Of a stretch of 64,000 nt of DNA, positions 1-64,000 are shown one piece after another; position 1 is the stretch's first letter, and every line of letters starts with the position of its first letter. Under the pieces are notes generated by a model. That model searched no databases. It worked only from the letters and a program-made list of their open reading frames with translations, and was not told the origin of the DNA. The stretch is taken from the NCBI GenBank assembly GCA_964438135.1, contig CAYTJW010000001.1:14791-78790 (forward strand). The letters are read 5' to 3'. The position numbers were made by a program, and so were the translations under genes. The stretch comes from an uncultured Thermoanaerobaculia bacterium. Its GTDB lineage: Bacteria; Acidobacteriota; Thermoanaerobaculia; Thermoanaerobaculales; Sulfomarinibacteraceae.

Positions 1-459
1 CGCCTCCAGCGGGTACACGATGTTCGCCGGCGTCTTCATGTTCGCTTTGTGCATCCCACTGAAAAACGATCTCCATCGCGGGTAGTAGTCCGGGTTGATG
101 ATCTGTTCCTTGGCGATGTGGAGCGTGGTTCTCGGTTCCATGTTCTGATCCACAGTGGATACGCGGATGACCTCTGATCCTTCAGCCTTCATCACCCGTT
201 TCTCGATGCCACTGGTCTTTTTGGTACACGCGCTGACCAGTGGCGCAGACGGATGCTCCAGGCAGAAAGCCTCGGAAGCGTGTCCGTGGTGGTCGTAGAA
301 AACCCCGGCTGAGTGGCCGTCGCATCCTACCACGAGGACTCCTCCGTTCGGGTGCGGCTCGATCAAGAGATTTTCCAGGACGCCGTTACCCTTGCTGCCG
401 ACTTTCACGCAGAACTCAGCCGCCCATCCGATGAACTCTGCCTTGATCGAGAAGTTCAT
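1..459 (-). CDS. N-terminal 153 codons of the 242-aa beta-clamp-like protein; 3' part cut by the window start, full copy at 43340-44068
   Basis: ATG at 459 preceded by GGAGGG. Identical to 43610-44068. Confidence 0.6.
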   Translation of the reverse strand, partial: MNFSIKAEFIGWAAEFCVKVGSKGNGVLENLLIEPHPNGGVLVVGCDGHSAGVFYDHHGHASEAFCLEHPSAPLVSACTKKTSGIEKRVMKAEGSEVIRVSTVDQNMEPRTTLHIAKEQIINPDYYPRWRSFFSGMHKANMKTPANIVYPLEA

Positions 460-698
460 AGTCCCTCCAGTTCCTTGCTCCCGCAGTGCGGGCACTCGTT
501 GATGATCTCCTTGCGTCCACGTCCGCAGCCGTCCGTGCTCGTGAACTCTATCCAGGTGTGAACCTCATCGCGCTCACCTGCCCAGGAGCAGTCCTCGCAC
601 CGGACAGTGGACTCCATCATACATAGACCGTCCAGCGGCGGGCTGCATTCTTTGCAGCGGCCGAGCGAGTCTTCGTAGTGGCAGTGTGCTTCACACAT
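456..698 (-). CDS. Small Cys-rich zinc-ribbon-like protein (80 aa)
   Basis: GGAGGA RBS 6 nt upstream of the ATG. Several paired Cys motifs (CKEC, CEDC, CPHC). Overlaps the upstream stop. Confidence 0.6.
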   Translation of the reverse strand: MCEAHCHYEDSLGRCKECSPPLDGLCMMESTVRCEDCSWAGERDEVHTWIEFTSTDGCGRGRKEIINECPHCGSKELEGL

Positions 699-1074
699 GC
701 CTTGTCCTCCAGCGTTCCTTGGTCCGTTTGCAGCGGCAGATCTGCGAGCCGCTGCCGTATTTCACGCCATGCCACATGAAGCCGTCGGGGCCACGGAACC
801 ACACATCGGTTCTGGTCCTGGCGAAATTGTGTCTCCCGCGCCTGGATGCCGTCACGCGAAACGAGAGAGTGCCGGGCCAGTTGACGACGTGGCCTATGGA
901 AAGGTAGAGCGTGATCTTGCCGGTCTTCATCATGTGGTCCCGATCCTGCCAGCAACAGCACTCGTAGCAAACCTTTCCGTTGGTCTTGAGATTGACTGCG
1001 TAGCCTGTTCCGCCCTGCTTCTGGACAGGCTTTTCCCTGCCGCACTCGCTGCAAATGAACGTAGCGTTTTCCAT
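691..1074 (-). CDS. Cys-rich hypothetical protein (127 aa, starts MENATFICSECG)
   Basis: AAGGA RBS before ATG 1074. CxxC and CYECCC motifs. The longer 211-aa track ORF has a poor-quality N-terminal extension. Confidence 0.6.
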   Translation of the reverse strand: MENATFICSECGREKPVQKQGGTGYAVNLKTNGKVCYECCCWQDRDHMMKTGKITLYLSIGHVVNWPGTLSFRVTASRRGRHNFARTRTDVWFRGPDGFMWHGVKYGSGSQICRCKRTKERWRTRHV

Positions 1075-1184
1075 GGCTAGTCCTTCGGTTCGTGGTTGAG
1101 GGCGGCCCTGGCTATGTCGTAGTGCTCGAACAGGTTGCCGCTGCCTAGAATGCGCGCCATCTCGACTGATGCGGTTGAGTTGCA

Positions 1185-2794: not shown

Positions 2795-3408
2795 CACAGC
2801 ATCTCCTTGCACTTGTACACCGTCCGCTTTTCGGTGACGGTTTCTTCCACGACCTCGCAGTTCCGGCCGCCGGCAGCGGTGATGGTGATGATCACGTCGC
2901 CGAAGGTGCCGGTGTAGTACACGCCGTCGTCTTGGGTCCTGGGGTTCCATCCGATCCCGAGTTCCTCGTGGAAGGCGGTGAGGACGTGTTCCACCATGGC
3001 GATGCTCTCGTCGGCCAGGATCTCGCGGACGCGCTGCTTGGCCGGGGCCATGTACTCGCTGATGTACTGCTCCCTGTAGGAGTCATAGAGATTGCTGCCT
3101 TCATCTTCGTACAGCTTGAGCCCTTGCGCCTTGAGCTGCTCAAGGGCATACTCCGACGCGCCCGCGTTGACCTCGCGCTCGGCCGCGTACATTTCTCTGC
3201 TGTATTCCGGCCAGTGTCCCACCGTGATGAAGATGGCACCCTTGCCGCCGCTCTTGTCCACGGATAGCGATCCGTGACAGCTTTCCTTGATGTGCTTCTC
3301 CAGGTACGGATGCGCACGGAGAACACGCTCAAGGACTCCGTTCGCGGCCATGATCGCGGACAGATCCTTGCGCATCTGGTCGATCTTCGACGCGGTACTC
3401 TTGTGCAT
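2794..3408 (-). CDS. Hypothetical protein (204 aa)
   Basis: GGAGGAG RBS 5 nt before ATG 3408. Balanced composition. Confidence 0.65.
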   Translation of the reverse strand: MHKSTASKIDQMRKDLSAIMAANGVLERVLRAHPYLEKHIKESCHGSLSVDKSGGKGAIFITVGHWPEYSREMYAAEREVNAGASEYALEQLKAQGLKLYEDEGSNLYDSYREQYISEYMAPAKQRVREILADESIAMVEHVLTAFHEELGIGWNPRTQDDGVYYTGTFGDVIITITAAGGRNCEVVEETVTEKRTVYKCKEML

Positions 3409-3568
3409 GATACTCCTCCATTGGTTTTGCCCGTTTTGAAAAGTGGCCGTTGCATCTTCTGTGCGCTGGGTTGCTGCGGCGTTGGCTGTGGATCTCGGCG
3501 GGTCTGGCTGTACTGCTGTGAGGGGCTACAGTCAGCGGTATGATCCAGGGCTTAAAAAAACTGAGGAA

Positions 3569-3643
3569 TGGTGGAAGCGTCGGGAGTCGAACCCGAGTCG
3601 AGAGATTTTAAGTTCCCCGCTCTGCCGTCTGAGCTACGCTTCC
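3569..3643 (-). tRNA. 75-nt tRNA with encoded CCA; canonical fold gives anticodon UAA (nominally Leu) but with a class I short variable loop
   Basis: Hand-folded cloverleaf. Acceptor GGAAGCG/CGCUUCC, D arm GCUC/GAGC, T arm UCGGG-UUCGACU-CCCGA, anticodon loop CUUAAAA. Confidence 0.8.
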
Positions 3644-3697
3644 ACTTTCCCTCCTGAGGGCGTGAGGATCGTCGTCCCCACGCCCTCGTTGCCGGCC

Positions 3698-4132
3698 CTA
3701 CCAGGGCACGTCGTCGCTGCGGGCCGCGTCGTCCATCTCGGGAGCGCGAGGGTCGATCGGCGGCACGTCGTCGCTCGGCTGCTGCTGCGCGGCCTCGGCC
3801 TTCGGCTTCGGGTGGTAGCGTTCCAGGAGGTTGACGCTGTTGGCCCAGATCTTGGTCCAGAGCGTCTTCTGCTCCTTGTCCTGGGACTGCTTGATCATCC
3901 CGGTCACGGCGACCTTGTCGCCCTTCTTGAGCGCCATGGCCCGGACGCGCTCGGCCGTGCTGTTCCAGGTCTGGGTCTCCAGGAAGATGGTCTGCTCCGT
4001 CCAGGTGCCGTCGGGGCCCTTGTAGTCGTCGTCGATGGCGAGGCTGAACCGGGTCATGCGGCCGTCCATGTGAGTGACCGGGTCGCAAGCGAGGCGACCC
4101 TCGGCGATGAGGCGGGTGCTGTTCTGAGGCAT
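3698..4132 (-). CDS. ssb: Single-stranded DNA-binding protein (144 aa)
   Basis: GGAG RBS before ATG 4132. OB-fold-like N-terminal part, Pro/Gln/Ala linker, acidic tail ending DDVPW like bacterial SSB tips. Confidence 0.8.
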   Translation of the reverse strand: MPQNSTRLIAEGRLACDPVTHMDGRMTRFSLAIDDDYKGPDGTWTEQTIFLETQTWNSTAERVRAMALKKGDKVAVTGMIKQSQDKEQKTLWTKIWANSVNLLERYHPKPKAEAAQQQPSDDVPPIDPRAPEMDDAARSDDVPW

Positions 4133-4200
4133 GGTGAACTCCTTTTGTTTTTGCCTCCAGGCGCATTTCCGATGCTGCTCCAGAGGACATTTGCGAGGGC

Positions 4201-4236
4201 GGGTCGCAGCGCCGAAAGCATTCAGCGTTGCGACCC
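4201..4236 (-). other. 12-bp intergenic stem-loop between a 71-aa gene and ssb (no U-tract)
   Basis: GGGTCGCAGCGC ... GCGTTGCGACCC inverted repeat with a 12-nt loop. Confidence 0.4.
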
Positions 4237-4277
4237 ACGGTGCCATGAACGATTCAAGCACTGCCCCTCCTTTGGTT

Positions 4278-4493
4278 TCACGGAGAGACAGAACCCGGAG
4301 CGGAGCGAAGGGTCTTGATGCGCGCTTTGATGACAAGATCCGCGAGGATCATCACGCGCTGCGGCGTGGCGTGTATTTTGCGCATTTCGGTTATTCTCTT
4401 GCTGTTTTTTACGTTGTGGTAGAATTTGTTGCCGTCCGAGCCGATGTTGATGTTGGTGTGGTGCGGGTCTGTGGCCCATACGATCTCGTTCAT
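4278..4493 (-). CDS. Hypothetical protein (71 aa, starts MNEIVWATD)
   Basis: ATG 4493 lies 2 nt after the upstream TAG. Locally lower GC. Confidence 0.5.
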   Translation of the reverse strand: MNEIVWATDPHHTNINIGSDGNKFYHNVKNSKRITEMRKIHATPQRVMILADLVIKARIKTLRSAPGSVSP

Positions 4494-4495
4494 GG

Positions 4496-4999
4496 CTAGT
4501 AGTCCCTCGCTGCTTTCTGGAGTTTGATGAAGTCCTTCTCTCCAAGGCCGTTGCGTAGCTTGAGCCCGATGCTCAGGCACTCTTTGTATGTGGCCTCAGC
4601 CTTTCTGCTGTCTTCGTCGCATCCGGTGTACATGGCCCAATCCTCGAACGAGTTGTAGTCGAGCGCGTCCGCGTCGCTGACGATCGAGTAAACGAACTGG
4701 ATTATGTCCGGTCGCAGCTTCCTTCCAAACACGTCGCACCCGTTGGTCAACGCCATATTTATCGCATCCTGGTACGCGATGGAGCGAGGCGAGAAAGGGT
4801 GCTTCATCTTTTCCATGAGCAGACAGGCTATTCCACTTTTGAACTCCTGTTCCAGTATCAACCTGTCTTCCTTGTAGAGCCAGACCTTCCATCGCGCATG
4901 TTTCCACTCTTTGAACTCTTTCGAGTCCATGTCCGGCTTGAGATACACGAACTCGATGCGCAGCCCCATGTCCTTGATCATTTCGGGCAGTGTCATCAT
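4496..4999 (-). CDS. Hypothetical protein (167 aa)
   Basis: ATGA overlap with the upstream stop, with GAGGAGGA just upstream. Confidence 0.6.
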   Translation of the reverse strand: MMTLPEMIKDMGLRIEFVYLKPDMDSKEFKEWKHARWKVWLYKEDRLILEQEFKSGIACLLMEKMKHPFSPRSIAYQDAINMALTNGCDVFGRKLRPDIIQFVYSIVSDADALDYNSFEDWAMYTGCDEDSRKAEATYKECLSIGLKLRNGLGEKDFIKLQKAARDY

Positions 5000-5742
5000 G
5001 ACCATTCCTCCTCGTGTACGTTCAACCCCATCGCCCACTCGTCGCTCGGCTGGCACAACTCCAGTATGAGCGTGTCGATGATCCCCATCCGTATTGCGAG
5101 GCGATGTCGCTCGTTGGCGTTTCGCTCTCTCTTGTACTCGTTTTCTGCCTCCTGGTAGAGCGTGTAGAGGTCCACCACGTCCATGCGTTGTGCATACTCC
5201 CGCCAAAGGTGCATCGCCTCGGCGTATTCCGCCTTTGCGTAGAGCCGAGCTCTGGCGGCGATGCGTTCCGGGTCCTCGATCCAGCGTCCGTTGACCTTCT
5301 TGAATCCCTGCACTGCATCCTTCTTGAGCGCCAGATCATCCAGCGGCTTCCAGTTCTCATCGAAGCAGTCCAGGGCCTTGGCCGTGTTTCTTCCGGCTCT
5401 TTCCCATCGCGTCCATTCCCAATACTGCCTTGGCTGCATGTCCTGCTGCGCCTCGTCGTCGCCGTAGAAATAACTCCACCAGGACGTGGTTTCCATCGGC
5501 TCCTTGGGCGTGGACGGCTTCCACTTCTGGCTGTGGTAGATTTCCCACCAGACCTGCTCCTCGCCCGCTCCGTAGTATTTCCCACCGGCCCTCTTGAGCA
5601 TCGTGCGCGTGATCGGCGGCAATCCCCTGGCAAGGCCCATGGGCCGCTTGTGAAGCTCAATGCGCTTGCGCGCCTTGTTCCAGAAGGGCATCACGCCGAA
5701 CTTGAAGAACTCGCGATACTGCTTGTCTATGTGGTCTTGCAT
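4996..5742 (-). CDS. Trp-rich hypothetical protein (248 aa, starts MQDHIDKQY)
   Basis: AAGGAG RBS 7 nt before ATG 5742. Confidence 0.65.
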   Translation of the reverse strand: MQDHIDKQYREFFKFGVMPFWNKARKRIELHKRPMGLARGLPPITRTMLKRAGGKYYGAGEEQVWWEIYHSQKWKPSTPKEPMETTSWWSYFYGDDEAQQDMQPRQYWEWTRWERAGRNTAKALDCFDENWKPLDDLALKKDAVQGFKKVNGRWIEDPERIAARARLYAKAEYAEAMHLWREYAQRMDVVDLYTLYQEAENEYKRERNANERHRLAIRMGIIDTLILELCQPSDEWAMGLNVHEEEWS

Positions 5743-5867
5743 GGTTCTGCTCCTTGGGATATGAGGTTCGTCATGCCAAAAAGAACGCCTGAACAACACA
5801 GTGCCGAGGATTCGCTCCTAACACTGCCTGAACTCCTCGCCGCCTACTCCGCATCCTTCCCTAGATT

Positions 5868-5903
5868 TCTCGCGAGACTCGCGCATGGCGCTTCTGTCGC
5901 GAC
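5868..5903. promoter_or_regulatory. Palindromes TCTCGCGAGA and GTCGCGAC (three TCGCG cores) in a divergent intergenic region; candidate operators
   Basis: Perfect 10-bp and 8-bp palindromes within 36 bp, between a - gene (start 5742) and a + gene (start 6043). Confidence 0.35.
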
Positions 5904-6042
5904 TTGCTGCGAAGGACGCGGATGCCCCTCCTACCTCGGTGTCTCACGCCTCCTGATGGAACAAGGTGGCGACTCAATTCCAGAGATCGTCGCCTTTCGC
6001 TCCAACTTCTTCGTAGCGCAAGAGGCCGCATCGAGGCTTCAC

Positions 6043-6318
6043 ATGGACCAGCTTATTGAGCTTGCGGACAAGGCTGATGACAAGAACAAGCAAAGCAAGG
6101 TCGCTTTGCAGATGAAGGCGTTGCTTGAACATGCGGAACGCATTTCTCCGCACTCTTTTGCGAAGGCTCGTCGCCAGTTCGATAGCGTGGATACGCCCGA
6201 GGCCCTGGCGAACAAGCTTGAGAATGCGTTCTTGATCATCGCGCAGCGCAATGCTGCCCGCAAGGCTGAGGGACTTCCCTCAAAGCCCGCTGCGATCGCA
6301 ACCAAACACAAGCCCTGA
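6043..6318 (+). CDS. Lone plus-strand helical protein (91 aa) inside the early region; regulator or T7 gp18-like small-terminase candidate
   Basis: GAGG 6 nt before the ATG. Sensible helical sequence. The antisense ORF here looks like shadow sequence. Confidence 0.5.
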   Translation: MDQLIELADKADDKNKQSKVALQMKALLEHAERISPHSFAKARRQFDSVDTPEALANKLENAFLIIAQRNAARKAEGLPSKPAAIATKHKP

Positions 6319-6598
6319 CGATCATATCGCCGTGACATGGCTTCGGCTTGCACCAGCAAAGCAGATAGACAACGCCGTGTTCGTCTTCGAGCGCGTTGAT
6401 TCTGCGTAAGGCCCGTATAATGTCCTGGTTCCCGTTTTTCATCTCCTTCCATAGCCACTGCCTGTAGAGTTCTATCACCTTCGACCTGTCGCTCTCCTTC
6501 TTCATCTTGAACGGATTGCCAAGGATGCTCGGTCGTGCGATGTTGACTGTCTTCAACTCCGTACTCCATACCTGTCTGTGTGTCGCTACGATGATCAT
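6236..6598 (-). CDS. DUF4326-family protein (120 aa)
   Basis: AAGGAGG RBS. GNPF, LLCWC and CHGD motifs typical of DUF4326. Its 3' end overlaps the convergent + gene by 83 nt. Confidence 0.7.
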   Translation of the reverse strand: MIIVATHRQVWSTELKTVNIARPSILGNPFKMKKESDRSKVIELYRQWLWKEMKNGNQDIIRALRRINALEDEHGVVYLLCWCKPKPCHGDMIVRACVWLRSQRALREVPQPCGQHCAAR

Positions 6599-6702
6599 CT
6601 CGACCTCCTTCTGTTCCTTCTCGGACGCCTCATGCACTGGCACACACACTCAACCACCAAGCACAACGCAATCATCGCCAACCAGATCGCCGCAGCCTCC
6701 AT
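6595..6702 (-). CDS. 35-aa single-TM peptide with an Arg-rich tail; first gene of the leftward operon
   Basis: AAGGAGG 5 nt before ATG 6702. ATGA coupling to the DUF4326 gene. High GC3. Confidence 0.5.
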   Translation of the reverse strand: MEAAAIWLAMIALCLVVECVCQCMRRPRRNRRRSR

Positions 6703-6730
6703 CTTCGCCTCCTTGGCTGTTGTTGCAAGC

Positions 6731-6757
6731 TGAAACAAATTGAAACATGTTGAAACA
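6731..6757. repeat. Three TGAAACA direct repeats with exact 10-bp phasing
   Basis: TGAAACAAAT TGAAACATGT TGAAACA, between the putative leftward promoter and the first early RBS. Confidence 0.8.
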
Positions 6758-6768
6758 GAGAGCATGGC

Positions 6769-6796
6769 ATTTAAGAACCCGGAGTTCCGGTTTCCA
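6769..6796 (-). promoter_or_regulatory. Candidate leftward (early) sigma70-like promoter, TGGAAA-16-TTAAAT
   Basis: Hexamers read on the minus strand. The spacer contains the palindromic arms CCGGA/TCCGG. Confidence 0.3.
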
Positions 6797-7182
6797 CTGG
6801 AATAGGAACTGCGGGTTCCGATTCGGCATCCCGCGCCAACGCCCGCAGCCCCTCGCATCCGCGCCTTATGGCCCTGGACTCCAGTGTCCATGGACCTGCG
6901 CGGCTGATTCAGAGATGAATCAACCTTGGAACACAATGAAACATCGACACCCAGAAGCGCATGGCCTTTGATCGCCGCTCCCTCATCATCGACACCGTGT
7001 CACAGGGTCGCCGGGAGCCCTCGCCTTTCGTCCCGCTGAGGCCGGGGCATGTCCCCCAAGCCCAGGCACCAATAGCTAGACCGGTGCACACAGCCCCCCG
7101 GCACCAAACACCCGGGCCACTGCCCACAAAATTTTTTGCGCATTGTTTTTTTTTTGCGGCAGAACGCCCACGAAAAAAGTTG

Positions 7183-7211
7183 TTGACGTGCGGCGGGTGC
7201 CTTGGTAGATG
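7183..7211 (+). promoter_or_regulatory. Candidate rightward (late) sigma70-like promoter, TTGACG-17-TAGATG, with an upstream A/T tract
   Basis: Hexamer match and 17-nt spacer. T10 and A6 tracts at 7130-7180 resemble an UP element. Confidence 0.4.
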
Positions 7212-7253
7212 GGTCTTGTCGCTTGGGGCCGTGTCCCCGGGGGACAGGCGGGC

Positions 7254-7305
7254 CGCGATACGAAGCGGGAGCAATGCTCCTGAAACGTATCGCGGTTTCG
7301 TTTAT
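7254..7305 (+). terminator. Terminator-like hairpin in the late-operon leader
   Basis: CGCGATACG ... CGTATCGCG, a 9-bp perfect stem with inner GGAGCA/TGCTCC pairing, followed by GTTTCGTTTAT. Confidence 0.4.
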
Positions 7306-7383
7306 GGTGCCAGCCGATTTCGTTGTCGATCTCCCCCTTATATAGGCTAAAAAAAAATCGCAAGAAGCAATGACTCAAAAGTA

Positions 7384-7465
7384 AAAGTATTTTGTATTAA
7401 CAGTGGTGGGAATCGTTGTGTCACTAGGACTACCGTATGATACATGGAAAGTATTTTTGTATAAC
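7384..7465. repeat. Two ~18-bp direct repeats (AAAGTATTTTGTATTAAC and AAAGTATTTTTGTATAAC) in an AT-rich island upstream of terL
   Basis: Read directly. 64-bp spacing. Visibly the most AT-rich stretch of the unit. Confidence 0.75.
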
Positions 7466-7539
7466 GTCGCGGTTCAGATGTCTCGGGTTCGCCAGAGACA
7501 AGCAGCGGTGATTTTTAGCGCCATATAAGGGGGAGCCGT

Positions 7540-9135
7540 GTGAACCCCCTTCGGGTCCCTGAGGTTGCGCCCCGGCGTAGTTTGGTGGTAGGGGATTGGT
7601 CCATGGAGCAACACACGATCAAGTGGGGCCCGGCCCCTGGCGAGGAGCCTTACTACGCCCTGATCGAGGGGATGTCGGCCTACGTCAACGATCCTGTCGG
7701 CTATGCCCTGGACGTGTTGGACATGAAGCCGACGGGCCAGCAGAGCGACGCCTTGATGGCGATGGCGAACGATCCGAGGAACAAGGGTGTGGCCTGTTCG
7801 GGCCACGGCGTAGGCAAGACGAGGACGGAGGCTGTAGCGGCTCACTGGTTCATGGACACGCGTTGGAAGGCGAACGTGCTGGTCACGGCCCCGGTGAAGA
7901 CGCAGTTGTCGGACCTGTTCTGGAAGGAGCTTGTGTTCCTTTTGCTGCGCAAGCCCAAGGAGATCAGGGATCTTTTCGACAGGACGCAGGACAGCTACTT
8001 CCACCGGGCGTTTCGCGAGGAGTGGGCGCTCAGGGCACGCACGGCGCGTAAGGACAAGCCCGAGGCGTTGCAGGGCCGGCACAACCCGCACCTGTTGGTT
8101 CTCTGCGACGAGGGTTGCGGCATCGAGGACGTGCTGTACGAGGTCCTTGAGGGCGCGATGACACAGGGCGACAACAAGCTCTGGATCTTCACGAACCCGA
8201 CCAAGCCTGGAGGGTATGTCCACAAGGCGACAAAGGACAAGGACCACTTCATTGCGTTCACCTTCTCAAGTCTCGATTCCCCGCTGTACAACAAGAAACA
8301 GGCCGAGAGCATCGCGGCGCGGTACGGCCGCGAGTCGGACATCTACAAGGTTCGCGTGTTGGGCGAGTTCCCGAGCGGCGATCCGAACCAGATGTTCCCG
8401 CTGGCGCTGATCGAGTCGTGTTTCCTGGTTGAGATCAAGGAGGAGTTCCAGCGCCCCGTCGTGTGGGCCGTTGACGTTGCGCGTGAGGGCGACGACGAGA
8501 CAGTGCTGGCGAAGCGCCACGGGATGAAGGTCTTGCCGTTGACTGGCTGGTTCAACACGACGCTTGACCAGACCAGGAAGCGGATCATGCGCGAGTATGA
8601 CAACTGCAAGCCATCCGAGCGCCCTGAGCGGATCATCATCGACGCGACGCCGATGGGCGCCGGCCTGTGCGACGAGCTTGAGGCCCTCGGCTACCCAGTC
8701 GTGAGGTTCAATCCCGGATGGTCGGCCAGCGATCCGACGCGATGGGCAGACGCGAAGGCTGAATTGTTCGACGACGTGAAGCTGATGATGCAGCGCGGTC
8801 GCATCCAGTTGCCGAAACTCGACGTGCATGGCGAGATTGACAACGACTTGCACGGACAGTTCACAACGATCATGTTCGAGGTCGATCCGCACAACGGAGT
8901 GCTGCGCATCACGCCGAAGAAGTCGACGAAGAACCCGGTGCGGAAGTCGCCAGACAGGCCAGAAGCCGTGCTGTACCTCTTTTGGGACATGGAGTGCCGG
9001 ATGGCGAACTACGACGACGACGAGCAGCGCGATTTCCTCGGAAACCCCATCATGCCGCGTCGAAGCGCCTACGCCTATGACGAGTTCAAGGACGCGGAAA
9101 GGAAGCTCGGGTATGATCCGAGAGTCATCCTCTGA
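7540..9135 (+). CDS. terL: Terminase large subunit (531 aa, GTG start)
   Basis: Walker A-like SGHGVGKT. Asp-containing ATPase and nuclease motifs. The TAAGGGGGAGCC RBS context is identical to that of the gene at 11910. Confidence 0.9.
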   Translation: MNPLRVPEVAPRRSLVVGDWSMEQHTIKWGPAPGEEPYYALIEGMSAYVNDPVGYALDVLDMKPTGQQSDALMAMANDPRNKGVACSGHGVGKTRTEAVAAHWFMDTRWKANVLVTAPVKTQLSDLFWKELVFLLLRKPKEIRDLFDRTQDSYFHRAFREEWALRARTARKDKPEALQGRHNPHLLVLCDEGCGIEDVLYEVLEGAMTQGDNKLWIFTNPTKPGGYVHKATKDKDHFIAFTFSSLDSPLYNKKQAESIAARYGRESDIYKVRVLGEFPSGDPNQMFPLALIESCFLVEIKEEFQRPVVWAVDVAREGDDETVLAKRHGMKVLPLTGWFNTTLDQTRKRIMREYDNCKPSERPERIIIDATPMGAGLCDELEALGYPVVRFNPGWSASDPTRWADAKAELFDDVKLMMQRGRIQLPKLDVHGEIDNDLHGQFTTIMFEVDPHNGVLRITPKKSTKNPVRKSPDRPEAVLYLFWDMECRMANYDDDEQRDFLGNPIMPRRSAYAYDEFKDAERKLGYDPRVIL

Positions 9136-9472
9136 CGACGTGGTTCTGAACGGCGTAGCGATGGACTTCGCCTTCGAGTGCGTGTCTTCGGGCAAGGTCA
9201 TCGCAGAACTTTACTGTAAGGTGGAGTCCGGCGTACTGTGTCTGCACATGCAGCCCATTGAGCACCTCACTGGTGCGATGATACGCGAGATGCAGCAGGA
9301 CTTCATCGCGCTCGTGAAGACATTTATCACTGAGGCTGGCATCAAGCGCGTCATGTTGACGCGGAGCGACGACGGCGGGGCTGTATATGACAGGTTCATT
9401 GCTTACTTCGGGTTTCGCCCTATGGCGCAGATGTTCATCAGCGTTGAAGATGCAGCGAAGCTCACCGAGTAA
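9113..9472 (+). CDS. Small GNAT-fold-like protein (about 119 aa; start uncertain)
   Basis: The C-terminal half (GIKRVML...YDRFIAYFGFRP) resembles the GNAT core. Overlaps the terL 3' end. Confidence 0.5.
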   Translation: MIRESSSDDVVLNGVAMDFAFECVSSGKVIAELYCKVESGVLCLHMQPIEHLTGAMIREMQQDFIALVKTFITEAGIKRVMLTRSDDGGAVYDRFIAYFGFRPMAQMFISVEDAAKLTE

Positions 9473-9476
9473 CGCA

Positions 9477-9968
9477 ATGGTCCGGCTTCCGGTCAGCATT
9501 ATAGACTTCAAGCCGTTCCATACGAAACTGTTTGACCCTGAGCAGGAGGCTTTTTCGTCATTCACGGGGTTCGGTGCAGACCCTGAACAGTTCATCATCG
9601 CAGCCAGCCAGTCTTCGTGCAGGGTTTGCTCGTTCATAGACGCGGAAGGCATGGTTCTCGGCATAGCAGGCGCGTTCCCGCAGTTCTTCGGCATAGGAGG
9701 CGGGAGCGCGAGGCTGTTCCTGGTCCCATCCAGGCATGTGAAGGAGCAGTGCCCGCTGGCCTTCGCCAGGGCTGCGCGGAAGATGGCTGAGTCGCTGGTG
9801 CGGCAGTGGGGCTTGCACCGCCTTGAAGCAGTCGCGCTCGACGGCTTTACAACTGGAGCCCGGTTCCTTGCATTCCTCGGCTTCCGTGCCGTAGGTGTGC
9901 TGGAGAAGTACGACCTGGACGGACGCGACTTTGTCCTGTACGAAAAAATCTACAGCGAGGAGGAGTGA
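9477..9968 (+). CDS. GNAT-family (RimJ/RimL-like) acetyltransferase-fold protein (163 aa)
   Basis: LHRLEAVALDGFTTGARFLAFLGFRAVGVLEKY...DGRDFVLY pattern. The canonical acetyl-CoA loop is not obvious. Confidence 0.6.
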   Translation: MVRLPVSIIDFKPFHTKLFDPEQEAFSSFTGFGADPEQFIIAASQSSCRVCSFIDAEGMVLGIAGAFPQFFGIGGGSARLFLVPSRHVKEQCPLAFARAARKMAESLVRQWGLHRLEAVALDGFTTGARFLAFLGFRAVGVLEKYDLDGRDFVLYEKIYSEEE

Positions 9969-9969
9969 T

Positions 9970-10221
9970 ATGGGCGGCGGCGGTGGTGGTGGCAAGGGTG
10001 GAGGGGTGAGCGCACCGGCCACGGTGCAGTACCCGACGGCGAAGCCGGCGAAAGAGCCGGTTGACCCGGACGCGAAGAAGGCTTCGAGTTCAGAGGTTGA
10101 CGCGACCTCGCAGAAACAGGCGGCTCTCGCTGCGAAAAAGAGCGTCTATGCCACTGCCAACGACGCGCTCGGCTCCCCGGCGGCTTCCGGGTCCGTGTAC
10201 AGCCGCACCCTCGGCGGCTAG
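9970..10221 (+). CDS. Gly/Ala/Lys-rich low-complexity virion protein (83 aa), T7 gp7.3-like by position
   Basis: Lies immediately upstream of the portal. Starts MGGGGGGGKGGG. Confidence 0.5.
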   Translation: MGGGGGGGKGGGVSAPATVQYPTAKPAKEPVDPDAKKASSSEVDATSQKQAALAAKKSVYATANDALGSPAASGSVYSRTLGG

Positions 10222-10229
10222 GAGGCCAG

Positions 10230-11900
10230 ATGGATCGCCAGCAGGTTGCGCGTTACGTCAAGATGTACGAGGCGCTCAGCGCGGATCGCGGGAACTACGA
10301 GTCGCACTGGAAAGAGATCGCCGAGAACATCTACCCGTACAAGGTGGCTATGTTCTCCGGCGACAAGACGCGCCCTGACTTCCGCAAGATCTACGACGGG
10401 ACGCCTATGTGGAGCCTTGGGATGCTCACGGCGTTCCTGCACACCATGCTCACGAACCCTGCGCAGATCTGGTGCGAGGTTGTCCCCGAGGATGACCGGC
10501 TCGAAAAGCGGTGGGACGTGCGCAAGTGGATGCAGGAAGTCAACGCCAGCATGTTCCGCACGATGGTCAAGTCCAACCTGCACTGCCAGCTTCACGAGGG
10601 CTACGCCGACCTGTGCGCGTTCGGGAACATGCCCATGTGGACTGAGCCGAGCCCGACGAGCGTGGTGCGCTACAAGGCGATCCCGCTGAACGAGATCCTG
10701 TGGGACGTGAACGACGAGGACATCCCGGACACGGCCGTCCGCGTCCTCTACCCGACGGCCCGCTGGCTGGCGACCGAGTTCGGTGTTGAGAACCTCTCTC
10801 CCGCCATGAAGAAGTCCTGCGAGAAGGAGGACACGCTCTACCGTGACCGCTACCGCGTGATCCAGGTGGTCCGGCCTCGTGAGGAGTTCCACCCGATTCC
10901 GCGCTGGCACAAGCTGAACCGGCCCTATGAGAGCGTCTGGATCGGCGTCGATGATTACCACTGCCTGTCCATCGGAGGCTACTACGAGAACCCGCTGTGC
11001 GTCGGACGCTTCACGGTGGAAACCGGGGAGCGCATCGGCCACGGCCCGGGCTCCCTCGCCCTGCCTGATGCGCGGCAGCTTCACATGCTCCAGAAGCACA
11101 CGCTTCGCGCTGCTCAGAAGATGACTGACCCGGCGCTGATGATGCCTGACCGTGCGTTTGTCGGCCCGATCGACCTGTCGAGCGGTGCGCTCAACTACTA
11201 CCGCAAGAGCGGAGCCGCCGCGCTCAAGGGCGGCTCGGCCCTGGTCCAGGCGTTCCCGCAGGGTCAGCACATGGCCGACGTGCGGGCCGAGAAGCAGGAC
11301 ATGCGCGAGTCCGTGCAGCGCGACTTCTACGTTGATCAGTTGCGCATCCGCGAGGGCGACCGCATGACGAAGGAGGAGGTCATCCGCCGGGCCGAGGAGA
11401 ACAACCGGATCTTCTCGCCGATCCAGGGCCGCAGCATGGTCGAGGTCAACGAGCCGCTTGGAAGGCGGACGTTCGACATCATGCGCCGTGCCGGCAAGAT
11501 CCCGCCGCCGCCCCAGGCCGTCCTCAAGGGCGGGCTTCGGATCAGGATCTCCAACCCGCTCCAGAAGCAGCAGTCAATCGCCGACATCCAGGGGCTCGTG
11601 TCGGCCATGGACATGGTCACTCCCATGGCGAACGCGAAGCCGGCGATCCTGGACGCCGTTGACGAGTCGAAATTCTTGCAGTTCGTCTTCAAGAGCTTCG
11701 GCGCTCCGCTCGAAGTCCTGCACGACCCGGCCGAGTTCATGGCCGCTCTCAAGCAGAAGCAGGACGCCGAGCAGCAGCAGCAGATGATGCTGGCCGGGAG
11801 CCAGGGAGCGGCCAACATGGCGGGGGCTGTGAAGGACATCGCCGCAGCGCAGGAATCTTCGGGTGGGGGGCTTGCGCGAATGTCCCCGTTCCTGCAATAA
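10230..11900 (+). CDS. Portal (head-to-tail connector) protein, T7 gp8-type (556 aa)
   Basis: GGAGG RBS. N-terminal RGNYESHWKEIAENIYPYK motif typical of the podovirus connector family. Size and position fit. Confidence 0.85.
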   Translation: MDRQQVARYVKMYEALSADRGNYESHWKEIAENIYPYKVAMFSGDKTRPDFRKIYDGTPMWSLGMLTAFLHTMLTNPAQIWCEVVPEDDRLEKRWDVRKWMQEVNASMFRTMVKSNLHCQLHEGYADLCAFGNMPMWTEPSPTSVVRYKAIPLNEILWDVNDEDIPDTAVRVLYPTARWLATEFGVENLSPAMKKSCEKEDTLYRDRYRVIQVVRPREEFHPIPRWHKLNRPYESVWIGVDDYHCLSIGGYYENPLCVGRFTVETGERIGHGPGSLALPDARQLHMLQKHTLRAAQKMTDPALMMPDRAFVGPIDLSSGALNYYRKSGAAALKGGSALVQAFPQGQHMADVRAEKQDMRESVQRDFYVDQLRIREGDRMTKEEVIRRAEENNRIFSPIQGRSMVEVNEPLGRRTFDIMRRAGKIPPPPQAVLKGGLRIRISNPLQKQQSIADIQGLVSAMDMVTPMANAKPAILDAVDESKFLQFVFKSFGAPLEVLHDPAEFMAALKQKQDAEQQQQMMLAGSQGAANMAGAVKDIAAAQESSGGGLARMSPFLQ

Positions 11901-11909
11901 GGGGGAGCC

Positions 11910-12239
11910 ATGATCAAGATCGACGACATCAATCCCCTCGGCTTCCAGGCCAGCGTCGAACAACTGCGTTCTTCGCTGGCTTTCGAGATGTTCTTCGTCT
12001 GGCTGGCGGACCAGTGCTTCATGGACAAGAGCGCGATCGTGCCCGGAGATCCGCTCCAGACTTACGCGAACGAGCACTTGCGCGATATGATCCTGGAAAT
12101 CAAGAATCTCGTTTACGGTGACGAGTTCAAGCCCACACCACAACCCACGGAGGTCAACGACAATGGCAGATCTGACGACGCCGAGCGGAACCCCGCCCGC
12201 TGGTACGCCTTCGGGCGCTTCTTCGGAAAGCGGCGGTAG
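11910..12239 (+). CDS. Hypothetical head-assembly-region protein (109 aa)
   Basis: TAAGGGGGAGCC RBS. The 3' 77 nt overlap the scaffold ORF in another frame that also has high GC3. Confidence 0.55.
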   Translation: MIKIDDINPLGFQASVEQLRSSLAFEMFFVWLADQCFMDKSAIVPGDPLQTYANEHLRDMILEIKNLVYGDEFKPTPQPTEVNDNGRSDDAERNPARWYAFGRFFGKRR

Positions 12240-13406: not shown

Positions 13407-13423
13407 GAAGGAGGACGTAGGCA

Positions 13424-36724: not shown

Positions 36725-36725
36725 C

Positions 36726-50311: not shown

Positions 50312-50339
50312 CTTCGCCTCCTTGGCTGTTGTTGCAAGC

Positions 50340-50820: not shown

Positions 50821-50862
50821 GGTCTTGTCGCTTGGGGCCGTGTCCCCGGGGGACAGGCGGGC

Positions 50863-50914
50863 CGCGATACGAAGCGGGAGCAATGCTCCTGAAACGTATC
50901 GCGGTTTCGTTTAT
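50863..50914 (+). terminator. Terminator-like leader hairpin
   Basis: Exact duplicate of 7254-7305. Confidence 0.4.
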
Positions 50915-50992
50915 GGTGCCAGCCGATTTCGTTGTCGATCTCCCCCTTATATAGGCTAAAAAAAAATCGCAAGAAGCAATGACTCAAAAGTA

Positions 50993-51074
50993 AAAGTATT
51001 TTGTATTAACAGTGGTGGGAATCGTTGTGTCACTAGGACTACCGTATGATACATGGAAAGTATTTTTGTATAAC
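50993..51074. repeat. AT-rich ~18-bp direct repeat pair
   Basis: Exact duplicate of 7384-7465. Confidence 0.75.
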
Positions 51075-51148
51075 GTCGCGGTTCAGATGTCTCGGGTTCG
51101 CCAGAGACAAGCAGCGGTGATTTTTAGCGCCATATAAGGGGGAGCCGT

Positions 51149-52744
51149 GTGAACCCCCTTCGGGTCCCTGAGGTTGCGCCCCGGCGTAGTTTGGTGGTAG
51201 GGGATTGGTCCATGGAGCAACACACGATCAAGTGGGGCCCGGCCCCTGGCGAGGAGCCTTACTACGCCCTGATCGAGGGGATGTCGGCCTACGTCAACGA
51301 TCCTGTCGGCTATGCCCTGGACGTGTTGGACATGAAGCCGACGGGCCAGCAGAGCGACGCCTTGATGGCGATGGCGAACGATCCGAGGAACAAGGGTGTG
51401 GCCTGTTCGGGCCACGGCGTAGGCAAGACGAGGACGGAGGCTGTAGCGGCTCACTGGTTCATGGACACGCGTTGGAAGGCGAACGTGCTGGTCACGGCCC
51501 CGGTGAAGACGCAGTTGTCGGACCTGTTCTGGAAGGAGCTTGTGTTCCTTTTGCTGCGCAAGCCCAAGGAGATCAGGGATCTTTTCGACAGGACGCAGGA
51601 CAGCTACTTCCACCGGGCGTTTCGCGAGGAGTGGGCGCTCAGGGCACGCACGGCGCGTAAGGACAAGCCCGAGGCGTTGCAGGGCCGGCACAACCCGCAC
51701 CTGTTGGTTCTCTGCGACGAGGGTTGCGGCATCGAGGACGTGCTGTACGAGGTCCTTGAGGGCGCGATGACACAGGGCGACAACAAGCTCTGGATCTTCA
51801 CGAACCCGACCAAGCCTGGAGGGTATGTCCACAAGGCGACAAAGGACAAGGACCACTTCATTGCGTTCACCTTCTCAAGTCTCGATTCCCCGCTGTACAA
51901 CAAGAAACAGGCCGAGAGCATCGCGGCGCGGTACGGCCGCGAGTCGGACATCTACAAGGTTCGCGTGTTGGGCGAGTTCCCGAGCGGCGATCCGAACCAG
52001 ATGTTCCCGCTGGCGCTGATCGAGTCGTGTTTCCTGGTTGAGATCAAGGAGGAGTTCCAGCGCCCCGTCGTGTGGGCCGTTGACGTTGCGCGTGAGGGCG
52101 ACGACGAGACAGTGCTGGCGAAGCGCCACGGGATGAAGGTCTTGCCGTTGACTGGCTGGTTCAACACGACGCTTGACCAGACCAGGAAGCGGATCATGCG
52201 CGAGTATGACAACTGCAAGCCATCCGAGCGCCCTGAGCGGATCATCATCGACGCGACGCCGATGGGCGCCGGCCTGTGCGACGAGCTTGAGGCCCTCGGC
52301 TACCCAGTCGTGAGGTTCAATCCCGGATGGTCGGCCAGCGATCCGACGCGATGGGCAGACGCGAAGGCTGAATTGTTCGACGACGTGAAGCTGATGATGC
52401 AGCGCGGTCGCATCCAGTTGCCGAAACTCGACGTGCATGGCGAGATTGACAACGACTTGCACGGACAGTTCACAACGATCATGTTCGAGGTCGATCCGCA
52501 CAACGGAGTGCTGCGCATCACGCCGAAGAAGTCGACGAAGAACCCGGTGCGGAAGTCGCCAGACAGGCCAGAAGCCGTGCTGTACCTCTTTTGGGACATG
52601 GAGTGCCGGATGGCGAACTACGACGACGACGAGCAGCGCGATTTCCTCGGAAACCCCATCATGCCGCGTCGAAGCGCCTACGCCTATGACGAGTTCAAGG
52701 ACGCGGAAAGGAAGCTCGGGTATGATCCGAGAGTCATCCTCTGA
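51149..52744 (+). CDS. terL: Terminase large subunit
   Basis: Exact duplicate of 7540-9135. Confidence 0.9.
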   Translation: MNPLRVPEVAPRRSLVVGDWSMEQHTIKWGPAPGEEPYYALIEGMSAYVNDPVGYALDVLDMKPTGQQSDALMAMANDPRNKGVACSGHGVGKTRTEAVAAHWFMDTRWKANVLVTAPVKTQLSDLFWKELVFLLLRKPKEIRDLFDRTQDSYFHRAFREEWALRARTARKDKPEALQGRHNPHLLVLCDEGCGIEDVLYEVLEGAMTQGDNKLWIFTNPTKPGGYVHKATKDKDHFIAFTFSSLDSPLYNKKQAESIAARYGRESDIYKVRVLGEFPSGDPNQMFPLALIESCFLVEIKEEFQRPVVWAVDVAREGDDETVLAKRHGMKVLPLTGWFNTTLDQTRKRIMREYDNCKPSERPERIIIDATPMGAGLCDELEALGYPVVRFNPGWSASDPTRWADAKAELFDDVKLMMQRGRIQLPKLDVHGEIDNDLHGQFTTIMFEVDPHNGVLRITPKKSTKNPVRKSPDRPEAVLYLFWDMECRMANYDDDEQRDFLGNPIMPRRSAYAYDEFKDAERKLGYDPRVIL

Positions 52745-61827: not shown

Positions 61828-62435
61828 TGGGTGAAGGAACAGCGTTGCTGATTGCCGGTGGCGTTTCCGCCCTGGCTTCCATCGGCTCTGGCTATATGGC
61901 AAGCGCGGCTACGGCAGCGCAGGGCCGCAACTTGGCGAACCTGCAACGCGCTCAGGCGCAGCAGCAAGCGGCCATTCTCCGGTCGAATGCCGACAAGTCA
62001 ATGCTCGACAAGAGGGCGATGGAGGTCAAGGCTTCGATCGAGAAGCGGGAACTCCAGCGCAGGAACAAGATCGCGCAGGGTGAGCGTCTTGTGGCCGCAG
62101 CCGGCTCGGGATTCGAGATCAACGGGACCACCATCCAGGATGTCCTGGATCTCGAAAAGAGTCACGACGCGCTCGGCGAAGCGACGCTCGGGTGGGAGTG
62201 GAAGAACCGGATCTCGCGCAAGCTCGACGAAGCGAACGTCGCATTGTCCGACGCCAAGGTCACGGAGCAACTCGGAACCGCGACGGCCAACGCGACGCAG
62301 TCTTCGGCCTACGCCCAGGCTTCGGCGCAGTCCTGGGGCGGCATCTTCGGCGGGCTCTCCGACGCCGCAGGAGCCGGCGCGAAGGCTTACGCGAATTGGG
62401 ACGCTGACGACAAGAAGTTTTGGGGGCAACCATGA
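61827..62435 (+). CDS. Internal virion protein (202 aa)
   Basis: Exact duplicate of 18218-18826. Confidence 0.5.
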   Translation: MGEGTALLIAGGVSALASIGSGYMASAATAAQGRNLANLQRAQAQQQAAILRSNADKSMLDKRAMEVKASIEKRELQRRNKIAQGERLVAAAGSGFEINGTTIQDVLDLEKSHDALGEATLGWEWKNRISRKLDEANVALSDAKVTEQLGTATANATQSSAYAQASAQSWGGIFGGLSDAAGAGAKAYANWDADDKKFWGQP

Positions 62436-63688
62436 GCAAGAAGGGCGCGATCGATCTCTCTCAGGGCGCAAAGATGCTTGAGGGAGGGCGCGAGGATTTC
62501 AAGGACGCCAGCGTCATCCCGGCTGCGCAGGGGTTCACGAACCTCTTTCACGCTGTTTCCAACTACGACGCCGGCCGCGAGGCCGAGCGGCTTGGCGCTC
62601 GTGTGCGCGGCTCCATGCGCGAGATCCAGGCGGCAAGCTCCGAGTATTACGACAAGAAGAACGACCTCGAAGACTTTCGGATACGCGCCGGAATAGAGTC
62701 CGAGATCTCGCAGTTCTCATCGGAGATCAGGAATGAGATCAAGGCGTCGCAGGGCACGAATGCGGACGGGCTTCACGAGAAGATCTCAAAGAAGTGGAGC
62801 GAGTTCTCGACGCGCTTCGACGAGCGCCTGACGCAGTTCAACGATCCGAAGGTCGCAGAAGCGGTGAAGCTCCGCATCGGCGAGTCTCAGATTCGCGACA
62901 TCTCCGACGCCCTCGGCCAGCAGAACGAGGAGGGTGTGAAGGTCGCTGAGCAGGACTTCCGCGCCGCCCTGGACCGGGTCAAGCTGGCAGCGAAGAAAAA
63001 CCCTTCGCTCGTGTTCGCGGAAGGCGGCGGGTCCGAGTTCATGTCGGCGCAGGAGCTTGGCGGCCTGCTTGTCCGAGCCGGGGCCAGCCCCGCACTGATC
63101 GCGGTGTCGCTCGACAAGGCCCGCCGCGAGGCGGCGTCTTCCGCGTTCGGCACCGAACTCGATCTTGCCCAGGCCGAAGGCTACAAGACCGGCTCCATGG
63201 ACGCTGCGAACTCCGTTGTCGAGCGGTATCGCGGGATGGTTGACGATGACGTGCTTGCAGCCGCGAAGAAGCAGAACGAGTACGCGAACAACGCGCTCAA
63301 GAAACAGCGCGACTTCGACAACCGGCTTGAAGGGAGCGACATGATCGCAGCCGGCGGTGCGACGTTTTCGCAGAACATATCCGAGATCAAACAGTTCCTC
63401 GGTGGCAATCCGTATGAGGTCCAAAAAGGCTTGCGCGACCAAGCGCAGTTCAAGGCTTTGCAGGATCGCGTGTCAGCAGCCCGTGACGCTGCGCGGATGC
63501 GCTCGGAAGGATACAAAAAGAAGGGCATGGTCGATGCCGCTGATGCCTCGCTGAAAAAAGACGAGGAGGAGATTTCCTTCGTGAGCGCCCTCATGCTGCG
63601 CCTCGCTGCGCAGGGAATGTCCAAGCCTTCGCTGTCGCAGGATAAGAGCATTCTCGGTCCTGACTTTCTGATGGAGGAAGGCAAGTGA
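62432..63688 (+). CDS. Internal virion / ejection protein (418 aa)
   Basis: Exact duplicate of 18823-20079. Confidence 0.5.
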   Translation: MSKKGAIDLSQGAKMLEGGREDFKDASVIPAAQGFTNLFHAVSNYDAGREAERLGARVRGSMREIQAASSEYYDKKNDLEDFRIRAGIESEISQFSSEIRNEIKASQGTNADGLHEKISKKWSEFSTRFDERLTQFNDPKVAEAVKLRIGESQIRDISDALGQQNEEGVKVAEQDFRAALDRVKLAAKKNPSLVFAEGGGSEFMSAQELGGLLVRAGASPALIAVSLDKARREAASSAFGTELDLAQAEGYKTGSMDAANSVVERYRGMVDDDVLAAAKKQNEYANNALKKQRDFDNRLEGSDMIAAGGATFSQNISEIKQFLGGNPYEVQKGLRDQAQFKALQDRVSAARDAARMRSEGYKKKGMVDAADASLKKDEEEISFVSALMLRLAAQGMSKPSLSQDKSILGPDFLMEEGK

Positions 63689-64000
63689 ACGAAACAACGG
63701 ATGCCATAGTCCAGATGCGCGTCGATGCCGTCATGCGGTCCATGGCGGCTCAGCGCGTCAAGGCGTTCCAGGATGACCCCGCCGGAGTCTTCGGTGACGA
63801 GGCCAGGGAGTCCGTCATCAACGACTTGTCCGGCGGCGACCCGGCTTCCGCCGATAAGATTCGTGTCGAGGTCCTCGGCGGAATGCACGGAGACATCGTC
63901 GCCCGCCGCAACATGGACTTGCAGCGCGAGTACGCCTCTGACCCGACGTACATGCCGAGGCTGTTCTCCAGATCGGAGCGGGCCAACATCGGCATGGCGC
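63685..64000 (+). CDS. Internal virion / ejection protein, 5' part only (truncated by the window end)
   Basis: Duplicate of the start of 20076-21617. Confidence 0.5.
   Translation, partial: MNETTDAIVQMRVDAVMRSMAAQRVKAFQDDPAGVFGDEARESVINDLSGGDPASADKIRVEVLGGMHGDIVARRNMDLQREYASDPTYMPRLFSRSERANIGMA

Follow-up and report, generated by a model that had tools for sequence, protein, structure and literature searches.

We analysed a stretch of 64,000 nucleotides (hereafter the window) and find that it consists of 1.47 turns of one 43,609-bp unit, which probably represents one complete, self-closing podophage genome written out past its own length, with headful packaging as the most likely basis of its circular map. 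In a position-by-position comparison, positions 1-20391 are identical to positions 43610-64000 at 20,391 of 20,391 sites (0 mismatches), as a preliminary description of this DNA had claimed. The single head-to-tail period that it proposed is also recovered: when offsets from 43,000 to 44,199 are scanned, 43,609 is the only one at which identity exceeds 40%, and there it reaches 100%. Chance cannot be the source of an identity extending over 20,391 bp. Identical copies, a single period and an extra length that is set from outside are the signs of an unrolled circular or complete contig, and all three are found here. The window divides into two parts:

1-43609, unstranded: first full turn, the complete phage genome, ~60% GC, recognised by its period, identity and full gene set.
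43610-64000, unstranded: partial second turn, an exact copy of 1-20391, stopped by the end of the window.

Being perfect, the period contains no junction of its own; 43609|43610 marks only the phase in which the first base of the window recurs, and its position is therefore uninformative about the start of either the record or the molecule. The bases quoted earlier for this point, CGCCTCCAGC, do stand at both 1 and 43610. The other end, 64000, is the edge of the window rather than a biological boundary, and corresponds to unit position 20391, within ORF 20076-21617. On the minus strand, the last bases of the unit (...CAT) read as an ATG in frame; a unit rotated to a gene start was nevertheless rejected as a reading, since this codon is Met154 in a 242-aa gene that has several ATGs further upstream, and thus a coincidence. 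This gene extends across the phase point:

43340-44068, minus strand: 242-aa gene of unknown function, ATG at 44068, spanning 43609|43610.

The preliminary description had rightly placed 43609|43610 inside this ORF and had concluded from it that no physical end lies there. The conclusion stands, since independent contigs cover the point, whereas the reasoning does not, because it took a phase for a junction. Its warning about annotation, gene counts and apparent paralogs was also justified, as the genes of 43610-64000 are duplicates rather than paralogs. Gene counts, paralogs, repeats and composition statistics should be taken from 1-43609 alone, which is the only range to annotate, with genes read through the wrap point; the remainder is merely a verbatim re-reading of 1-20391.

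That the circle is real follows from the adjacency across 43609|43610 in contigs from two sequencing runs and in a related strain. Contig SRR12133403_34556 (15,379 bp) is 100% identical to window positions 33340-45062, and contig SRR12133404_109239 is 100% identical to 41782-45062, both crossing 43609|43610; the gene at 43340-44068 is also called on the Logan contigs from SRR12133403 and SRR12133404. A related strain from another metagenome, represented by JGI contig Ga0496407_001640, is colinear over 41487-44721 at 88-97% identity. At the corresponding position (2039-2764), L019 carries a 241-aa gene, and the DNA there aligns at ~88%. Additional contigs from SRR12133403 match 1827-2902, 2877-12294, 12294-17203 and 24359-29096, and together the independent contigs that we retrieved cover the unit except for 1454-1826, 17204-24358 and 29097-29683.

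The places where these contigs stop could be mistaken for termini. Only two repeats of at least 31 nt exist within the unit (at 1424-1458/1822-1856 and 12265-12323):

1424-1458, unstranded, second copy 1822-1856: 35-nt exact internal repeat; the k=31 contigs end at 1453 and begin at 1827.
12265-12323, plus strand: 24-nt tandem repeats in ORF 12118-13194; an independent contig breaks at 12294.

Each of the contig ends 1453, 1827 and 12294 is found exactly 30 nt (k-1) inside one of these two repeats and results from internal repeats of at least 31 nt meeting k=31. They are assembly breaks and not genome ends, and we rejected them as physical termini on that ground. The 35-nt repeat encodes a common C-terminal peptide (...AALAKPEGGA) together with the ribosome-binding site of the next gene, and the product of ORF 12118-13194 matches phrog_3742, of unknown function, and less strongly the protease family phrog_458. 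The other contig ends, at 2877, 17203, 24359, 29096 and 29684, fall inside coding sequence in strain-variable regions (99-99.97% identity).

The genes of the unit are organised in two divergent arms, one on the plus strand from ~7540 to 32068 and one on the minus strand between 32125 and ~5742, by way of position 1. The virion genes and the replication genes are the following:

10230-11900, plus strand: portal (head-tail connector) of the T7 gp8 type; phrog_332 (E 6e-110), PF12236.
13424-14296, plus strand: major capsid protein; phrog_3437, PF19821 Phage_capsid_2.
14812-30420, plus strand: podovirus tail and ejection module; phrog_394, phrog_376, phrog_684, phrog_1640.
14812-15444, plus strand: tail tubular A-like.
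15426-18218, plus strand: tail tubular B-like.
18811-28017, plus strand: large internal virion proteins.
28018-30420, plus strand: tail fibre.
32125-43337, and onward through position 1 to ~5742, minus strand: replication arm.
33462-33866, minus strand: endonuclease/resolvase-like.
34836-36554, minus strand: UvrD helicase.
36726-38405, minus strand: primase-polymerase-like.
40220-41572, minus strand: SNF2 helicase.
42034-43080, minus strand: DUF932.
3698-4132, minus strand: SSB, in the extension of the replication arm past position 1.

Three proteins of the tail and ejection module (422, 513 and 1212 aa) have no family match. Because the unit holds a full gene set, with packaging, head, tail and replication all present, the 43.6-kb unit is a complete genome, that of an uncultured podophage (a tailed phage whose tail module is short and of the T7 type).

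The unit has two terminase genes, set ~1.2 kb apart; between them lie a DUF4326 gene on the opposite strand and a control region that is non-coding:

5773-6318, plus strand: small terminase subunit, 181 aa, Sf6-like; PF20901, phrog_1482.
7603-9135, plus strand: large terminase subunit, 510 aa; phrog_2, with the ORF open from a GTG at 7540.

The small subunit is of the Sf6/P22 kind, matching PF20901 Sf6_terminase with an E-value of 2.5e-8 [34.3 bits, against a Pfam cut-off of 27] and also phrog_1482 (terminase small subunit), and the same family is called at the equivalent position in the relatives L023 and L029. When the large terminase was compared with solved structures as a single sequence, there was no match, and the profile search alone succeeded: with a profile of its homologues, Sf6 gp2 (4idh) is the sole full-length match (E 1e-11). 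A tblastn search with the large terminase finds P1 PacB at 27.8% identity (E 1e-23). Its nearest isolates are Clostridium difficile phage phiCD505 (33%) and Sinorhizobium phage phiM5 (29%), each aligned over ~86% of the length, and neither T7-like nor lambda-like phages occur among the 90 matches listed (the 30 best and 60 spread over the ranking). By similarity searches rather than a formal phylogeny, the large terminase groups with headful types and not with cos or direct-terminal-repeat types. From this pair, through matches of 25-33% identity or at profile level, we infer headful (pac) packaging.

Under headful packaging, virion DNA is circularly permuted, has redundant ends and comes out of assembly as a circle. 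From a terminase pair of the headful type, permuted virion DNA and an assembly that closes on itself are accordingly to be expected of this phage. The Sf6-like small subunit and the Sf6/P1-like large subunit would process replicative concatemers into pieces slightly longer than one genome, and the resulting virion DNAs would be circularly permuted and terminally redundant, such that they would assemble to a circle without fixed ends. As far as the sequence can tell, headful (pac) packaging is most likely the biological reason for the circular map. In line with this, a PhageTerm study found the ends of phiCD505 to be redundant and detected no fixed termini (PMC5557969). As for the layout, a genome shorter than the 64,000-base window would be written out linearly past one turn, and the 20,391-bp repeat would then reflect the layout rather than the DNA molecule itself. 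This layout may go back to whoever cut the window, or to the way in which the contig itself is represented, and who unrolled the circle we infer rather than observe. The preliminary description had offered a circular or permuted genome, a concatemer or an unrolled contig; the data agree with that range, and the closing adjacency together with the headful-type terminases narrows it.

The extra length might instead have been assembled. Multi-copy viral contigs and untrimmed circular contigs are a known artefact of assembly and representation, and like the window they run past one genome length with identical copies. Under this explanation, the contig genuinely exceeds one genome, either as an untrimmed long-read overlap of a circular or concatemeric template or as a concatemer made by the assembler, and the fact that headful phages make concatemers, with terminases of that type present here, gives it some plausibility. 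Nevertheless, we regard it as unlikely. Identity is perfect over all 20,391 bases, as the copying of one sequence would give, whereas the ends of untrimmed long-read contigs usually differ slightly where they overlap; the copy number is fixed exactly by the edge of the 64,000-base window, the extra length filling the window to the base, which points to the layout and not to the assembler; and in de Bruijn assemblies from the same samples, contigs break at 31-mers and none is multi-copy. Concatemers made by an assembler are a kind that completeness checks on viral contigs pick out by their high k-mer frequency. If a long contig were nonetheless the true source, this would be ordinary biology and would add nothing new. 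That the 64 kb faithfully records physical head-to-tail DNA, as a long-read concatemer or as a multimeric circular episome of an integrase-less podophage, seems to us quite improbable.

A real head-to-tail tandem duplication within a larger replicon, such as tandem prophages or a multimeric plasmid-like episome, is very improbable. Nothing direct speaks for it; distant relatives of the portal do lie on circular records of ~39-41 kb in plasmid collections. Against it, family scans of predicted genes of at least ~100 aa found no integrase, partition or plasmid replication genes, host flank is absent throughout the 64 kb, and searches returned neither a near match in plasmid collections nor a close relative among 185,579 species genomes. 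The marks of a temperate prophage or phage-plasmid are thus missing, and a prophage or plasmid was rejected on the same observations (integrase and partition genes, near plasmid matches, close relatives in species genomes). A linear genome of ~64 kb with a direct terminal repeat of ~20 kb would produce a formally identical pattern, with the same sequence at both ends, and is effectively refuted. Such a repeat would include the genes for both terminase subunits, portal, capsid and tail tube, and its length would be dictated by the size of the window; independent contigs read on without interruption at 43609|43610 as well as at the start of the window copy, and the terminases are not of the direct-terminal-repeat type. 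We also rejected a T7-like genome with direct terminal repeats, on the gene arms, the absent RNA polymerase and the terminase type, and share the earlier view that this is no T7-like short terminal repeat, given the terminase type and the circular map.

The reading of the unit as one self-closing podophage genome places it among several known systems without making it a close relative of any. By portal, the nearest isolates are HTVC010P-group Pelagibacter podophages, Vibrio phage VP5 and the Liberibacter SC1-type phages, the closest being the pelagiphages (~30-31% identity). All of them resemble the unit in the PF12236 portal, the podovirus tail and a genome of 34-43 kb, but portal identity to these groups is merely 26-31%, and the unit is ~60% GC. 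With T7-like phages (Autographiviridae) the unit has in common the T7-type portal, the tail tubular A/B-like proteins and the large internal virion proteins; unlike them, it has divergent arms rather than genes on one strand, its terminases are of another type, and scanning all ORFs >400 aa against PHROG and Pfam gave no RNA polymerase family. Sf6, P22 and P1, which are headful and circularly permuted, share with it the kind of terminase and a circular map without a fixed end. However, the homology is at profile level or at 25-28% identity, the head-tail and tail genes of the unit are T7-like and not P22-like, and its terminase genes are set apart by the ~1.2 kb described above; in contrast to the temperate P22 and Sf6, it has no integrase in the family scans, and a pac site was not identified. 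For phiCD505 and phiM5, morphotypes and hosts differ, and the likeness is demonstrated for the terminase alone. With a virion module of the T7 type and headful terminases of the Sf6/P1 type, the unit adds a member to a kind already known, and no new mechanism.

At the nucleotide level there is no match among 50,697 phage records. The 60-mer spanning 43609|43610 has no match in IMG/VR or among the JGI contigs. A 50-mer of the portal gene is likewise missing from the GTDB genomes and the JGI contigs, and the sole IMG/VR record to contain it is a 12.3-kb contig from a strain with 96% identity; the 1212-aa protein has no entry in the gene-position index. The metagenome assembly of a close relative is placed by a data paper in an anaerobic-digester dataset. 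The unit represents an uncultured podophage lineage of digester-type metagenomes, without a close cultured relative.

Two further elements of the unit do not encode proteins:

6650-7602, unstranded: gene-poor control region between the terminase genes, at the head of the structural arm.
3569-3643, minus strand: tRNA-Leu, anticodon TAA; called by ARAGORN and by Rfam RF00005 (57.4 bits).

The control region contains promoter-like, hairpin and divergent repeat elements, among them a predicted promoter, hairpin and U-tract of a putative small RNA around 7180-7310. In L023, L028 and L029, the large terminase gene is likewise preceded by a gap free of genes, 0.74-1.03 kb long. For the non-coding region 6250-7650, an Rfam search gave no match even at E-values up to 1 and a sigma-70 consensus scan gave no promoter; an element of the form TTGAC(G/C)-N17-TAGA(T/C) in this region is conserved with L028.

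Window positions 1-20391 and 43610-64000 match at 20,391 of 20,391 positions in direct comparison, and when offsets of 43,000-44,199 were scanned, 43,609 was the sole offset with more than 40% self-identity, at 100%. The head-to-tail arrangement given in the preliminary description is therefore borne out with 0 mismatches, and the bases it quoted for positions 1 and 43610 are right, as is its gene at 43340-44068, a minus-strand ORF of 242 aa that runs across 43609|43610. Its argument that a junction inside a gene is no physical end is invalid taken alone, because the junction is only the phase of the window; given a perfect period without an intrinsic junction, 43609|43610 is merely where the window's first base recurs. 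That no end lies there is nevertheless backed by independent contigs. At base 64000, within ORF 20076-21617, the second copy breaks off; this is the window edge and no biological boundary. The unit's final in-frame ATG (43607-43609, minus strand; Met154 of the 242-aa gene) was considered as a trace of rotation to a gene start and rejected: several ATGs precede Met154 in the gene, so that the unit's ending on an ATG is taken as coincidence.

The circle is real. The retrieved part of Logan contig SRR12133403_34556 (15,379 bp) reproduces window 33340-45062 at 100% identity and so crosses 43609|43610; the second run (SRR12133404) supplies a contig spanning 41782-45062, and a 27.2-kb JGI contig from a related strain is colinear with 41487-44721, with the same genes on either side. 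Further SRR12133403 contigs match 1827-2902, 2877-12294, 12294-17203 and 24359-29096. Only two exact internal repeats of at least 31 nt exist in the unit (1424-1458/1822-1856 and 12265-12299/12289-12323). The contig ends at 1453, 1827 and 12294, examined as candidate termini, each lie k-1 nucleotides (exactly 30) inside one of these repeats and are thus de Bruijn graph breaks, not genome ends; the k=31 break at 12294 is caused by 24-nt tandem repeats in ORF 12118-13194.

Judged by its gene set, the 43,609-bp unit is a whole phage genome, with a GC content of about 60% and two divergent gene arms.

Features of the 43,609-bp unit
32125 through the window-phase point (43609|43610) to ~5742, minus: minus-strand arm, with genes for a resolvase-like endonuclease, UvrD helicase, primase-polymerase-like protein, SNF2 helicase, DUF932 and SSB, a tRNA-Leu (anticodon TAA) and many small ORFs
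5773-6318, plus: small terminase
~7540-32068, plus: plus-strand arm, a podovirus virion module
7603-9135, plus: large terminase, ATG at 7603
10230-11900, plus: portal, T7-type (phrog_332, PF12236)
12118-13194, plus: ORF with family matches to phrog_3742 (unknown function) and, more weakly, phrog_458 (protease)
13424-14296, plus: major capsid protein
14812-18218, plus: tail tubular A-like and B-like proteins
18811-28017, plus: four large internal or virion proteins
28018-30420, plus: tail fibre

Three consecutive virion-module proteins of 422, 513 and 1212 aa (18811-25258, plus) have no PHROG/Pfam match and by position resemble T7 gp14-gp16-type ejection proteins. A 153-billion-position gene index does not contain the 1212-aa sequence in exact form, and the Logan contigs diverge by about 1% in the region neighbouring its gene. 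Near its N-terminus the product of ORF 12118-13194 has a (P)AGAPATP-like repeat, encoded by four tandem 24-nt units (12247-12368, plus), and a (GGCCTT)n run (32150-32197, minus) codes for the Lys/Ala-rich (KAKAKA...) C-terminal tail of a 156-aa gene (32125-32595; phrog_6802, unknown function) that sits where the two arms converge. The tRNA-Leu (3569-3643, minus) adjoins the SSB gene in the replication arm and may compensate for UUA being a rare codon in a host with roughly 60% GC.

The 1.47 copies are most simply, and quite probably, an effect of the window's layout, in which a closed or complete sequence of 43.6 kb was written on past its first full turn: the copies differ at no position, the surplus length exactly fills 64,000 bases, and short-read graphs from the same samples (SRR12133403/4), which collapse at 31-mers, never gave multi-copy contigs. 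It is unlikely that a multi-copy contig was truly assembled, through long reads or an assembler artefact. A tandem prophage or multimeric episome would also yield head-to-tail copies, and a 20-kb direct terminal repeat would yield identical ends, but the former is very improbable and the latter even more so: family scans covering predicted genes from about 100 aa upwards detected none for lysogeny or plasmid upkeep (integrase, partition or plasmid replication), the DNA has no host flank, the supposed "repeat" holds the terminases, portal and capsid, and contigs read through its supposed ends. The 20,391-bp repeat is no genomic feature. The preliminary description had correctly listed a circular or circularly permuted genome, a concatemer and an unrolled contig as options and correctly dismissed a T7-like short terminal repeat, and its caution over duplicated annotation proved useful.

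Sf6, P22 and P1 are textbook headful (pac) packagers: they take a little over one genome length at a time from a concatemer, so that their DNA is circularly permuted and terminally redundant and forms a circle on assembly. The small terminase of the unit matches Pfam Sf6_terminase (PF20901) over the curated cut-off. As a single sequence the large terminase matched no solved structure; its 38-homologue profile matched Sf6 gp2 over the full length (E 1e-11) and the terminase nuclease domain 8dkr (E 1.6e-14), with weak or single-domain matches to other solved terminases. In tblastn, the large terminase matched P1 PacB (E 1e-23), epsilon15/phiV10-like phages and C. difficile phiCD505/phiCD27 (33% identity), and 0 of the 90 matches listed were to T7-like or lambda-like phages. 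Since terminases of this Sf6/P1-like kind are headful in Sf6, P22 and P1, we infer from remote homology that the unit is probably packaged by headful, which would explain its circular map. Those traits of a headful packager that are open to a sequence test are present in the unit. For phiCD505, the PhageTerm study (PMC5557969) described redundant ends and detected no fixed termini.

The genome is that of a podophage pairing a T7-type virion module with putative headful terminases of Sf6/P1 type. It is without a close isolate and belongs to known kinds. Unlike the Autographiviridae, from which it is excluded, it has two gene arms and no phage RNA polymerase (PHROG/Pfam scans of ORFs above 400 aa), and it also lacks an integrase. 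No nucleotide match was found among 50,697 phage records or among plasmids, portal identity to isolates is at most about 31% (pelagiphage HTVC010P group, VP5, Liberibacter phages), and 185,579 species genomes gave distant relatives only. Close relatives are confined to metagenomes, with 99-100% identity to the unit in Logan contigs of SRR12133403 and SRR12133404, and about 88-97% in IMG/VR and JGI 3300038674, JGI 3300045924, GCA_030153565.1 and SRR24332395. The prefix of accession GCA_030153565.1 occurs in a paper on metagenomes of pulp-mill anaerobic digesters (PMC11556013).

The small and large terminase genes, normally adjacent, lie about 1.2 kb apart in the unit; between them are a DUF4326 gene on the opposite strand and a gene-poor region.

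Features between the terminase genes (conservation refers to alignment with L028, the relative with 73% large-terminase identity)
6236-6601, minus: DUF4326 gene (Pfam E 4e-21)
6650-7602, also 50259-51211: gene-poor region of about 1 kb, directly upstream of the large terminase
L028 440-1040; L023 5726-6712; L029 8972-10001: counterpart gene-poor regions on contigs carrying relatives
Gene-poor region: conserved block GCATGTCCCCCAAGCC
Gene-poor region: aligned promoter-like element TTGTTGAC-N17-GGTAGA, A/T tracts upstream
Gene-poor region: two aligned AAAGTATTTTTGTAT boxes
7214-7308, plus: 13-bp stem CCGCGATACG...CGTATCGCGG enclosing a smaller hairpin, then GTTTCGTTTAT
7331-7345, minus, and 7521-7535, plus: divergent pair of conserved CTATATAAGGGGGAG boxes
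Before the large terminase ATG at 7603: conserved leader with a CCC-UUCG-GGG hairpin (DNA CCC-TTCG-GGG)

The DUF4326 ORF converges on the small terminase gene and shares about 80 nt with its 3' end; the DUF4326 gene was not called by the Logan gene caller in the Logan contig L001. A gene-free gap of 0.74-1.03 kb upstream of the large terminase recurs in relatives with 40-73% large-terminase identity; the gap separates the small from the large terminase gene in the window, L023 and L029. Blocks conserved above neutral sequence emerge from the alignment with the 73% relative; the CTATATAAGGGGGAG boxes occur only twice per genome, and a 1-nt indel marks the leader as non-coding. The 13-bp hairpin, which stands downstream of the TTGTTGAC promoter-like element, is kept together with GTTTCGTTTAT in L028, in L022 (a further relative) and in L019 (JGI contig Ga0496407_001640 of the related strain), with one G-C to C-G compensatory change, three sequences being too few for covariation. 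No Rfam match was found for the non-coding region 6250-7650 at E up to 1. We regard 7214-7308 as a candidate small RNA or attenuator, and the gene-poor region could comprise a small RNA with a divergent early/late control region or switch, an origin, or a pac region.

A three-fold repeat (1181-1202, 1417-1458 and 1815-1856, minus) marks the 3' ends of small genes that follow one another on the minus strand. Each copy encodes the C-terminal peptide ...AALAKPEGGA, whose codons are overlapped by the ribosome-binding site GAAGGGGGTG and the next gene's start codon, and the repeat has the look of a translational-coupling cassette used more than once. The related strain L019 gives no alignment over the surrounding 1.1-2.1 kb, which is therefore a variable accessory-gene region.
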